This document shows positions 14,608-52,434 of a stretch of DNA of 64,000 nt, one piece after another. The stretch is from Octopus sinensis (taxonomy: Eukaryota): contig NC_042998.1 of NCBI RefSeq assembly GCF_006345805.1, positions 118,048,001 to 118,112,000 on the forward strand. Reading direction: 5' to 3'. The notes under the pieces were generated by a model, which worked only from the letters and a program-made list of their open reading frames with translations, had not been told where the DNA came from and searched no databases. Each line of letters begins with the position of its first letter. Positions within the stretch are counted from its first letter, which is position 1. Position numbers and translations under genes: made by a program.

Positions 14608-14863
14608 CTATTACAACCACTTTTCTTTATTAATTAATTAAATTAATGGCTTACTAGCGCAAGCGACCAACTTCTTGCTGTTATTTTTCTTCCATTTTCT
14701 TCTTGCATTTAATTTAAACTAAGGTTTACCCGCTGAGTTACCTGCTACCGTATACCTTTTACCAAGAACTTACCTACGCAGGTAATCACCAGGAGCGTCT
14801 TTGGATTTAACCATCGCTTAGAGATTTTTAACACCTCTGACTTATACTTATATACCTATATAT

Positions 14864-15458
14864 AGCAAAATCAAGGAACGGCCATAATAGGCCATTCACC
14901 CACTAGAAATAACAGCCAAAGCTTCAACCGCAAAACAACATTAATTCCGCAAACCAGGAGAAAATTAAAAAAACATTTACCCTGTAGTTCTTTATACGAT
15001 GCACCGTTTCATCTATTGTTTAATGGTAAACCAACCTGATTAAATTAAATCAAGCTAGTCTTCCATAGGCCGATAGATTCGTCAGTAAAGAACGGCCAGA
15101 TCGGAGCAGATATTTACACGAGGCACTTCCATCACTGTCTCGGCACTATCTGACCTAAAATTTTCAAATCATCGCACTCGCGCCAAATTTATCGGCAGCA
15201 AATATAAGCCGCCGATTCCATTACGGAATTAACCAGAAAATTCATAATTAATCAATATAGGGTGGCAAAAATTTCGTAGAAATCTTTTGCCACCAGCGGC
15301 CTAGTGGGAAAAAATTAAATAGTCATAGACCATTTATAAATTCAACAGCAAAATCAAGGAACGACCATAATAGGCCATTCACCCACTAGAAATAACAGCC
15401 AAAGCTTCAACCGCAAAACAACATTAATTCCGCAAACCAGGAGAAAATTAAAAAAACA
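14864..15458 (-). mobile_element. Non-coding hammerhead-bearing retroelement (retrozyme- or PLE pLTR-like): 483-bp unit plus 112-bp terminal redundancy
   Basis: Direct repeats 14864-14975 and 15347-15458 (one mismatch), internal complete hammerhead, both ends bordered by atacctatatata, (TA)n on the right. Confidence 0.75.
14987..15093 (-). ncRNA. Complete type I hammerhead ribozyme with long stem II
   Basis: Minus strand: GUUCUUUA-CUGACGA-AUCUAU...AUAGAU-GAAA-CGG-ugca-UCG-UA-UAAAGAAC; 8-bp stem I, GUA triplet at 14995-14997. Confidence 0.92.
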
Positions 15459-15459
15459 A

Positions 15460-15526
15460 ATACCTATATATATATATATTAAAAAATACCTATATATACC
15501 TATATATATATATTAAAAAACAAATA

Positions 15527-15583
<57 letters not shown>
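15460..15583. repeat. Stuttered aaaaa(ca)aatacctatata copies merging into (TA)n
   Basis: Direct inspection. Confidence 0.9.
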
Positions 15584-15587
<4 letters not shown>

Positions 15588-16987: not shown

Positions 16988-17086
16988 TATATATAAAATA
17001 TTATTCGAGACAAAACCACTATTTTGCAAAACAAGCAAGGAAAGACTTAATCAATACATAATTTTAATAAATAGTCAAAAAAACCG

Positions 17087-17129
17087 CCACTACAATCGTT
17101 TCTTGTCTTGATCGACAATCTTCAGGTGG
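17087..17129 (-). ncRNA. Minimal type I hammerhead motif (left arm)
   Basis: Exact reverse complement of 17204-17246. Confidence 0.8.
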
Positions 17130-17203
17130 ACTTCCAATAATTCAGTGTCAAATTATGAAGTCAATTATGAAACTTCATAATTTCTCACTGAATTATTGGA
17201 AGT

Positions 17204-17246
17204 CCACCTGAAGATTGTCGATCAAGACAAGAAACGATTGTAGTGG
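17204..17246 (+). ncRNA. Minimal type I hammerhead motif (right arm)
   Basis: CCAC-CUGAAGA-UUGUC-gaucaa-GACAA-GAAA-C-gauu-G-UA-GUGG; stems I and II pair fully, 2-bp stem III, GUA triplet. Confidence 0.8.
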
Positions 17247-17444
17247 CGGTTTTTTTGACTATTTATTAAAATTTATGTATTGATTAAGACTTTCCTTGTT
17301 TGTTTTGCAAAATAGTGGTTTTGTCTCGAATAATATTTTATAATATTTTACTATAAAATCGATTTAATCATAAATCTGATTTTTTCCCTGTAAATTTGGA
17401 TTTATTCCCTAATATTTATTATTATTATATATATATATATATAT

Positions 17445-23257: not shown

Positions 23258-23741
23258 GCATAACCGCCATAGGACTGCAAAAATATCTACTTCAGAAGGA
23301 AGGAAAACTGATCCAGATAGCGGCAAAACACGAGCAAAACAAAAAAACTGTTCTCAGTATTTAAGGAAGCTGACAAATACAAACAAGAAATCATACCACC
23401 TAATAAACATGAAGAAGAAGAAGAAGATGAAGAAACAACAAAAGCTATGAAACAAATGAAATCCAAACTAAAAATAGAACAGCAACGAACCATGATAAAA
23501 CGATGGCAAGAAAAGCCCCTTCATGGTAAATACTGGACTAAACTAAACGCAAAAGAAATAGACAAAGAAAAATCCCAGCAATGGTTGAGAAGCTCAGGAC
23601 TCAAAGCAGAAACAGAGGGATTTTTAATTGCAGCACAAGACCAAAGCCTCCCCACCAGAAATTACCAAAAACATGTAATGAAAAGAAATATTACAAGTAA
23701 CTGCAGAATATGTGGAGATGGACAAGAAACAATAAATCATA
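23258..23741 (+). mobile_element. R4/Dong-like non-LTR retrotransposon fragment (post-RT region to zinc knuckle)
   Basis: WQEKPLHGKY...QWLRSSGLKAETEGFLIAAQDQSLPTRNY...CRICGDGQETINH. Confidence 0.9.
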
Positions 23742-25000
23742 AATCAGCTTGAACGAAGATTTTGCTCGCTTCTTCAGGCCAAATTCCATATTTCTGTCAT
23801 CGCTGAATTTTTTCACACTTACTAATATACCTTTCAGATTATTGTCATCTTTTGCATATAATTTCAGATCAGCCATGTAGAGCAAGTGTGAGATGATCTT
23901 GTCAAACATTGTGTAACCGTAAATTCTTCTATTGAGCTCGTGGGACAAGTAATTGATGGAAAGAAAGAAGAGGAGATGGGGAGTGAATCAAGCTGGAATA
24001 TTCCATGGTTTACTTTGATGTTCTCTGGTACATACAAGCCTTTCTTGTGGTTGAGAAATAATTTTGTGATCCACAGTCACATACTGTGATGTAAAAAACC
24101 TTTTACGAAAGGAGAATTCTGTTATATATTTAGTGTCTCTGAAATCCATCTATGTGGAACATTGTCAAATACATTCCGTGCTAAGATTTCGTTTTGCAGC
24201 TGTACAATTTTCGAGTATTATACGATTTATTAACAGTTGGTCATTGCAGCCCTATGAGTTTCTTTTGCACCCTTTTTTTATTCAAGAGGAATTCTGTTGT
24301 ATCCATCGAGAAATTAGTACATCATTTCGGTGAGGATGGATGTAATTGTTTTCACATTGTGGTCAAACAAGTGACCGACCAGTAGTTGTTTGGATTTCTT
24401 GAATAGCTTGTTCTAGAGAATAGGTGTGTTATCCCTACTATCATCCATCTTACTGTCATTTCGGGGTTTCTCATGATATTAGAGAAACATACCATTAACT
24501 GACGGTTGGATGATGACATGCTGACAAAATAGAAGTCTGCGATTTTATCGTGTACAGGAGAATCCACTTATGAGTTTTAGATAGATGTAGTTTCTGCAAT
24601 GCAATAACATTCCATCTCTGTTCTTCTTCTCCCGTTGTCCATTCAGCTTCCTTCGTAAATTCATTTCTATCACTCCATACCCTTTTCCAAAATATCACTG
24701 TCTTTCATATTTGTCTGGTATTTTACTTCGATCGAGAGTTTCCCTAACTATCTGTGGAATTTCACGATGTCTCCCGTGGTCAGTCTATTGGCCATGAAGG
24801 GTTTCTTGTAGCAGCACTTATCACGGTATTCAGTACACGATTTGACTTACAGCTTTTCAAAAAATGTTTCTGGTGTCTCTATTTTCTTCTCTATTTATCT
24901 TTCATATCATCCTCTATTTTATATCTGTTGCAATGCTTGGAAACAGAAAACACTTTCATAATTCATTTATCTATACTTTCGCAATCCTACTGTGAAAATG
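23742..25000 (-). mobile_element. Decayed R4/Dong-like reverse transcriptase region
   Basis: ISHLLYMADLKLYAK (YMDD variant), MEFGLKK, IFWKRVWS; many stops; far boundary approximate. Confidence 0.8.
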
Positions 25001-51675: not shown

Positions 51676-51716
<41 letters not shown>

Positions 51717-51717
<1 letters not shown>

Positions 51718-51845
51718 ACGGTTAAATTTGTTTTTATTTTTCATTCCTTCGAAATTTTATCCCTAATGGTGGTTTGGAAGTTAAGTGTCCTCTCTAGCGT
51801 GCAGGTAGCCTTAAGCTGGATACCTCTTATGTGCTTAAATTTACA

Positions 51846-51891
<46 letters not shown>

Positions 51892-52434
51892 TGTATAGTC
51901 GATTGACTAAATTTCTGCAGGCTAGGCCACAGGTAATGGAAAATACTAATATTTCGGATGACCCTTTGAAGGATTTTTTATTATTGATAATTTTTCCTGG
52001 ATAATTTTCGAAATGAAAAAGCCGGCATATTTATTTAGTGCCAACAAAAAAGCTGCGCTTGCGCGGTAGATTTGAAGAATTAGAATGTATTAGCACGGGG
52101 CATATACTGGATTGCCTCGTGTATATATATTAAATCGAAAGTGTACCTACTGACGAAGGCTTCGCCTAGCAAATTATTTTATTTGCTAAAAAATGTCTGA
52201 AACCATTGGTCCAGAAGATAGATGGTAAATTTTTCATTCCCTTCGAAATGTTATCCCTAATAGTGGTTTGCAATTTAACTACCCTCTCTAGCGTGCAGGT
52301 AGCCCTATGATGGATATCACTTGTGTGTTTAAATGTAGACTGTATTTATATGAATAATATATAGTGTATTGACTAAATTTTCACACACTAGGCCACTGGA
52401 AATGGAAATTTCTAATATTTCAGATTACCCTTTG

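Follow-up and report, generated by a model that had tools for sequence, protein, structure and literature searches.

A non-coding hammerhead tandem in Octopus sinensis whose insertions carry the end signature of Penelope-like elements

The window analyzed here, a stretch of 64,000 nucleotides from Octopus sinensis, contains a short non-coding hammerhead tandem that we interpret as a non-LTR retrozyme. Its insertion anatomy ties this retrozyme to the machinery of Penelope-like elements (PLEs), as the two fixed 3' ends and the inverted copies found across the genome constitute the PLE "tail" signature, that is, two internal start sites of reverse transcription. We hold with high confidence that the element is a PLE-driven retrozyme. 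The fuller account, which we consider probable, is that it was copied in trans into a (TA)n target, likely by the reverse transcriptase (RT)-endonuclease of a PLE and likely from a circular RNA of about 483 nt. The features of the window copy are as follows.

14864-15458, minus strand: whole insertion, 1.23 retrozyme units, with its 3' end at 14864 and its 5' truncation at 15458
14864-15346, minus strand: single retrozyme unit, 483 bp, 38% GC (38.3%), non-coding
15347-15458, minus strand: second lap, partial (112 nt) and 5'-truncated, equal to the second 112-bp repeat
14987-15093, minus strand: type I hammerhead with a long stem II and a predicted cut at 14995/14994
14864-14897, minus strand: fixed 3' end A (14864) and its upstream hairpin (14876-14897), putative RT start site 1
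15244-15294, minus strand: site B (15244) and a hairpin (15261-15294), putative RT start site 2
14852-14863, plus strand: left copy of the 12-bp target-site duplication, ATACCTATATAT
15460-15471, plus strand: right copy of the 12-bp target-site duplication, ATACCTATATAT
15472-15584, plus strand: short re-copied junction pieces and a (TA)n run at the 5' junction

The first-pass annotation had described 112-bp direct repeats lying 483 bp apart with one mismatch, in a segment without an ORF, and both observations stand: the repeats (14864-14975 and 15347-15458) are 112 nt long with a period of 483 and differ only at 14881 (G/A), and no ATG ORF of at least 20 aa overlaps 14864-15458. The same repeats had been read as a terminal redundancy of the element, which they are not. 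The 5' ends of copies are scattered, and the 112-bp repeat is thus the arbitrary point at which the second lap of this copy was truncated; it varies among copies, and no true LTR is fixed in the retrozyme. Their near-identity had also been taken to suggest a young insertion. This fits a young copy, but since the units within one insertion were probably copied from one template, the similarity of the repeats dates the insertion only. End A lies 131 nt 3' of the predicted hammerhead cut, and site B, which lies inside the window copy, is where other copies have their second fixed 3' end. The target-site duplication is readable in the window copy only, those of other copies being obscured by (TA)n, and the junction pieces at 15472-15584 are either a repair product or assembly noise. 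Elsewhere in the window, a near-perfect long inverted repeat (16992-17342; 102-nt arms, 98% complementary) has a MITE-like or hairpin layout, and a weak zf-RVT match under the cut-off (23321-23752, plus strand; E=0.0013) is probably a LINE fragment.

A complete type I hammerhead had been proposed on the minus strand, and each of its elements was found. Stem I comprises 8 bp (15093-15086 paired with 14994-14987), the core sequences CUGACGA and GAAA begin at 15085 and 15010, the G-U-containing stem II region measures 68 nt (15078-15011), and stem III is capped by UGCA, with GUA at the predicted cleavage site. A strict hammerhead descriptor matched once in the 64-kb window and in none of 20 dinucleotide shuffles of it, and folding z-scores reached -5.1 for a 121-nt hammerhead piece and -5.6 for the unit folded as a circle. 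An Rfam search of the window returned no hammerhead match at E<=1. The predicted active fold lies above the lowest-energy fold by 2.1 kcal/mol in the isolated piece, by 4.0 in the circle, and by 4.1-7.4 in five longer linear contexts.

To these measures can be added an alignment that combines the window motif with 14 representatives; 15 had been drawn from 63 distinct motifs, and one with a 10-nt insertion was dropped. In the alignment, 97.4% of 505 cells are paired, a value as high being seen in 0 of 500 shuffles, and six pairs in stems I and II changed on both sides, a number reached by 57 of 500 shuffles; both measures are inflated by the relatedness of the sequences. Sliding the alignment as a control brings pairing down to 27-44%. 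Loop 3 is palindromic in two versions, UGCA or UAUA; the triplet GUA is constant. The alignment indicates structural conservation of the predicted hammerhead, with covariation of its stems from one subfamily to another. A palindromic loop 3 is given, in the accessible text of PMC4209133, as a hallmark of metazoan type I ribozymes able to act as dimers, and eight of nine predicted Xenopus retrozyme dimers are recorded as showing no cleavage in vitro in the available part of Li, Clavereau & Pollet (2026, bioRxiv 10.64898/2026.07.22.740005).

The O. sinensis genome (2.72 Gb) is rich in microsatellites, and the family to which the window copy belongs is widespread in it. An exact 23-nt stem III/stem I pattern has at least 3,822 matches genome-wide (control, 0). 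A similarity search with the unit gave 1,333 candidates, of which 40 were scored; full units among them are 94-100% identical, and older subfamilies lie at 84-95% identity. Tandem copies elsewhere in the genome, which the first reading had proposed to look for, do occur: the short units form dispersed dimers to multimers, the longest arrays having about 12 units, almost always within (TA)n, and a type I hammerhead is present in each repeat unit. Six arrays diverge internally by 0.4-0.9%, and a seventh locus, which pools two insertions, by 1.5%. Judged on its sequence, the element is a non-LTR retrozyme by every feature testable here.

The link to PLE machinery is drawn from the ends of the copies. 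On the ribozyme strand, copies end at A (14864) or, 103 nt farther round the unit, at B (15244), in both cases directly after a hairpin and against (TA)n. Exact junctions of the B end with (TA)n number 645 genome-wide (control, 0). A (TA)4 run was present no more than 25 nt away from the end in 90 of 92 cases for A and in 92 of 93 for B. Among 40 regions found by similarity, 39 were complete, comprising 23 inverted A+B copies, four other inverted copies, and 12 direct ones. A further sample took the first 60 of the 645 B/(TA)n junctions in order of position, skipping two that had already been sampled; in the 51 inverted copies the far end was A 50 times, another position once, and never B, with nine direct copies making up the remainder. 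Pooling yields 108 insertions, 60 of them selected by the B/TA pattern, with 76 simple A+B inversions, no A+A, and no B+B; the rest are six with one A or B end and an odd end, 25 direct, and one complex. Thus, simple inverted insertions are A+B in 76 of 82 cases and A+A or B+B in none. The two 3' ends (the tail), the inverted 5' copy, the 5' truncation, and the microsatellite target, all of them PLE-type features, are present in copies of the unit.

The arms of these inversions also bear on how they were made. The A arm is the longer in 35 of the 76 A+B inversions, with no regular bias. In four of the 76 the arms have no template in common, so one arm in those insertions is not a fold-back copy of the other, and such non-overlapping arms argue for two priming events over fold-back copying. 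Arms end at the same unit position in 14 of the 76 (1.1 expected); these are explained by annealing at palindromes and are uninformative on a circular versus a linear template. The terminal trinucleotide is duplicated (GCT GCT, GAT GAT) in about eight of about 65 A ends (e.g., L018, L029, L198, L210), which suggests slippage and re-priming at initiation. A "ruler" setting end A at a fixed distance from an upstream UUGAUU was considered and dropped, as the apparent 5-nt deletion subfamily proved to be a substitution variant; end A falls at the same homologous position across subfamilies, 6 or 7 nt after UUGAU.

The same rule governs related families. A 535-bp hammerhead sister family, homologous to the 483-bp unit (z=7.3 for the region 3' of the ribozyme), has copies that are 99% identical, arrays of up to about 18 units, and a tail of 128 nt; 19 of its 21 complete inverted copies end A+B. 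It is probably very young and is the best test system, with one example at L127:6665-7767 (C6). A 478-bp retrozyme-like family likewise has two ends. A copy of this third family, inserted downstream of a 781-aa PLE at locus L125, had been considered as the pLTR of that PLE and was rejected in that role; the corresponding z of 4.1 compares two retrozyme families, not a retrozyme with a PLE pLTR. At least three further hammerhead repeat families share the inverted, TA-flanked layout (L288:1026-1980, L123:7786-8872, L128:8283-8829). The window itself holds a second, diverged hammerhead repeat of a related family (51716-52417, plus strand; nhmmer E=9e-8 against the unit), of about 1.3 units, with a core CTGACGA near 52151, a stem I that looks decayed, and (TA)n both flanking and interrupting it.

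Autonomous PLEs are present in the same genome. A search for GIY-YIG domains gave 5,029 candidates, of which 150 were scored, and recovered RT plus GIY-YIG ORFs of 775-883 aa; these carry the linker cysteine motif that the accessible text of PMC8557442 assigns to Neptune and Nematis. In the youngest autonomous family (781 aa), about 40 nt separate the two ends, which lie in (TA)n; an inverted copy was seen at five of the eight loci examined for the second end, in all five with the other end, and no hammerhead was found in the family's 3' region. In a second PLE family, a relaxed scan picked up a compact hammerhead at 26 of 28 loci tallied, placed about 144 nt ahead of a marker close to the first end, a predicted layout that resembles the retrozyme's. 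PLEs are described as single-ORF elements. At L125:1174-4874 and at L128, copies of the youngest family have an additional 479-aa open frame that lies upstream of the RT-endonuclease frame, overlaps it, and has no Pfam match over the cut-off. Just to the right of the window, at L340:2351-4606, a decayed PLE ORF has a remnant hammerhead-like motif near its 3' end.

Whether the unit ever adjoins an RT/GIY-YIG ORF had been raised by the first-pass annotation, and it was found joined to a PLE ORF at 0 of 72 loci (60 plus 12), the PLE fragments nearby being separate insertions; there is likewise no RT plus GIY-YIG ORF within the retrozyme element. Conversely, the unit forms the terminus of a PLE at 0 of 70 PLE loci (50 in one set; 38 more of one family and 30 of another likewise negative), and none of the autonomous PLEs among the sampled loci (150 of the 5,029 GIY-YIG candidates scored) was found to have an end homologous to the unit. 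A 3.6-kb gap between two hammerheads on C1, considered as a possible PLE, turned out to be filled by two distinct insertions along with other repeats and to lack a PLE ORF. The 781-aa family is a candidate partner by timing, target, and end rule only.

A retrozyme-like element and a plain pLTR had been offered as alternatives for the window copy. The genome-wide tandem arrays, of the non-LTR retrozyme type, and the lack of a joined PLE ORF speak for the former, yet the two alternatives merge, as the copies are non-coding tandems and at the same time have two fixed PLE-type ends. In its literal form, the pLTR reading makes the window copy a 5'-truncated partial tandem of the pseudo-LTR of an autonomous PLE, and the PLE-type ends, the inversions, and the placing of the hammerhead, which precedes the 3' end by about 130 nt much as in the second PLE family, would all suit it. 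We nevertheless regard it as very improbable, given that the unit is joined to itself in arrays and was found neither beside a PLE ORF nor as a PLE terminus. A repeat propagated at the DNA level, either as a satellite or as a tandem carried by a Helitron/Helentron with the hammerhead as a passenger, would also yield tandem arrays, and TA-rich insertion sites are used by other elements as well. Such an origin seems to us extremely improbable in view of the fixed 3' ends with variable 5' truncation, the A+B head-to-head inversions, the appearance of the same end rule in an RT-encoding PLE, and the covarying ribozyme stems.

A more substantial rival, although still an unlikely one, keeps the PLE-driven element and changes the template to an uncleaved linear multimeric transcript of homogeneous source arrays, with the ribozyme acting at a different step and arrays growing or being homogenized at the DNA level. 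Uncleaved RNA is indeed the main substrate of a purified PLE in the accessible text of PMC11167929. Copying passes through the cut site in 229 of 244 units of the 483-bp family and in 156 of 158 of the sister family, which a linear template would predict equally well. In 48 insertions, 483-bp units diverge by 1.1% within an arm and by 3.4-3.6% between insertions, being about three times more alike within than between insertions; in the sister family, the values are 0.35-0.6% within and 1.8% between (39 insertions, two duplicates dropped). The nearest unit lies in the same insertion for 90 of 143 units and in another for 35, with 18 ties. Across arms, units in the same register differ by 1.25% and those in different registers by 1.20%, and this lack of a register effect weighs against a linear template.

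Nine variants private to one insertion, relative to the insertions sampled, are fixed in all (at least three) of its units; they occur in six of 47 insertions, seven of them on both arms, and 11 such variants are found in eight of 28 insertions of the sister family. A new variant fixed in a whole array and in both arms implies that one unit was read repeatedly, as a circle would supply, and such a single-unit bottleneck is beyond linear copying alone. The retention of the ribozyme with compensatory changes also counts against the linear account. Against the circle, 30 columns vary in only part of an insertion's units, and such subset variants in neighboring units suggest duplication after insertion; one insertion (C17:32873329) resembles a mosaic made from two templates; and homogenization by conversion or by assembly polishing is possible. 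A marked accumulation of 5' ends at the cut site was sought and rejected: the 483-bp family shows only a weak excess (12 versus 5.9 expected, P=0.017, the interval having been picked post hoc), and the sister family shows none (2 versus 1.8 expected). The weak excess suggests that some linear cleaved RNA is used. Assembled contigs of four presumed-RNA runs cover 26-29 of 29 unit bins, and two bridge the head-to-tail junction, a pattern in which circle, tandem, and DNA are indistinguishable. Internal initiation by a PLE would permit a template without a 3' end, and both the homogeneity within insertions and the read-through of the cut site fit a circular one. Given PLE-driven mobilization, a circular rather than a linear template thus appears quite likely to us. 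The first-pass annotation had suggested that the 1.23-mer could come from reverse transcription running more than once around a circular RNA of about 483 nt; copying over several laps fits the data, and the circle itself we infer.

Under the circular reading, multimeric transcripts would self-cleave into monomers that are ligated into circles. A PLE enzyme, probably a dimer, would nick both target strands and begin one cDNA from each of the sites A and B on the same RNA; each cDNA would run a variable distance, up to several laps, before the two ends join head to head. Priming on a single strand would give a direct, 5'-truncated copy such as that in the window (A end, 1.23 laps). In its strict form, this scheme has the dimer grip two fixed sites on one circular ribozyme RNA, prime one strand from each, and roll round, and we advance this one-site-per-strand version only tentatively.

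Parts of this scheme have precedent, here as given in the available portions of the sources. Purified PLE protein (Poseidon of Anolis) nicks and extends both strands, and its reverse transcription starts internally at two sites, the gap between which is the genomic tail (Frangieh et al., PMC11167929). In the same work, the start site showed no strand difference in vitro, and ribozyme cleavage was dispensable; mutants still inserted, and uncleaved linear RNA was the dominant substrate. The PLE tail is often found at one end only (Craig et al., PMC8557442; Arkhipova et al., PMC3846280) and is 30-40 bp long (PMC8557442, PMC11167929). Retrozyme circles have been shown in coral, mussel, and axolotl, with PLEs proposed as the mobilizers (Cervera & de la Pena 2020, PMC7229834), and the PLE link is supported by co-occurrence and pLTR trees (10.64898/2026.07.22.740005).

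Compared with these systems on the same portions of the literature, the element shows both shared and distinct features. Like animal non-LTR retrozymes (PMC7229834; 10.64898/2026.07.22.740005), it consists of non-coding tandems with one type I hammerhead per unit and GC below 50%, ranges from monomers to multimers, has a target duplication of more than 4 bp, and coexists with PLEs. Unlike those first reported, its 483-bp unit exceeds 170-400 nt (PMC7229834), although it lies within the later range of 51-972 bp (10.64898/2026.07.22.740005), and its stem II is very long. As in EN+ PLEs (PMC11167929; Naiad/Neptune, PMC8557442; rotifer Penelope, PMC3846280), tandems can be partial, 5' copies inverted, and 5' ends truncated; the tail is found at one end only, the targets are AT-rich or (TA)n, and a hammerhead lies upstream of the start sites. 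Unlike EN+ PLEs, the element lacks an ORF, its tail measures 103 nt (128 nt for the sister family) rather than 30-40 bp, and its short unit forms complete multi-unit tandems. The non-autonomous Chlamys elements, such as MRC1 (PMC8557442), are likewise PLE dependants with multicopy head-to-tail insertions, but they resemble their autonomous partners at the 3' end, whereas no homologous partner was found for the unit here. Naiad, the sister clade of Chlamys, is described in the accessible text of PMC8557442 as without canonical hammerheads, while the hammerhead here is complete.

In conclusion, retrozymes are a known class and their link to PLEs has already been proposed; the strict A+B rule adds unusually clear mechanistic evidence. 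The mobilizing enzyme and the circular template of animal retrozymes had previously been argued from co-occurrence and pLTR similarity, and PMC7229834 and 10.64898/2026.07.22.740005, in their accessible portions, make the case from co-occurrence and pLTR homology without fixed twin 3' ends, inversions, or TA targeting. A literature search, with subscription journals and Repbase outside its coverage, returned no description of twin fixed ends in retrozymes. Here the PLE two-start-site signature appears at high counts, in a genome that also contains PLE ORFs that are young and intact. Rolling reverse transcription can be tested directly, with the RNA and its target defined, both start nucleotides predicted, and candidate enzymes available, and the missing A+A and B+B insertions constrain how a PLE handles the second DNA strand, a step unsettled in vitro. 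If the proposed mechanism is true, internal initiation would explain how PLEs can spread circular RNAs that have no ends, in contrast to retrotransposons dependent on a free 3' end of the RNA, and circular RNAs could recruit the enzyme despite little terminal sequence homology.
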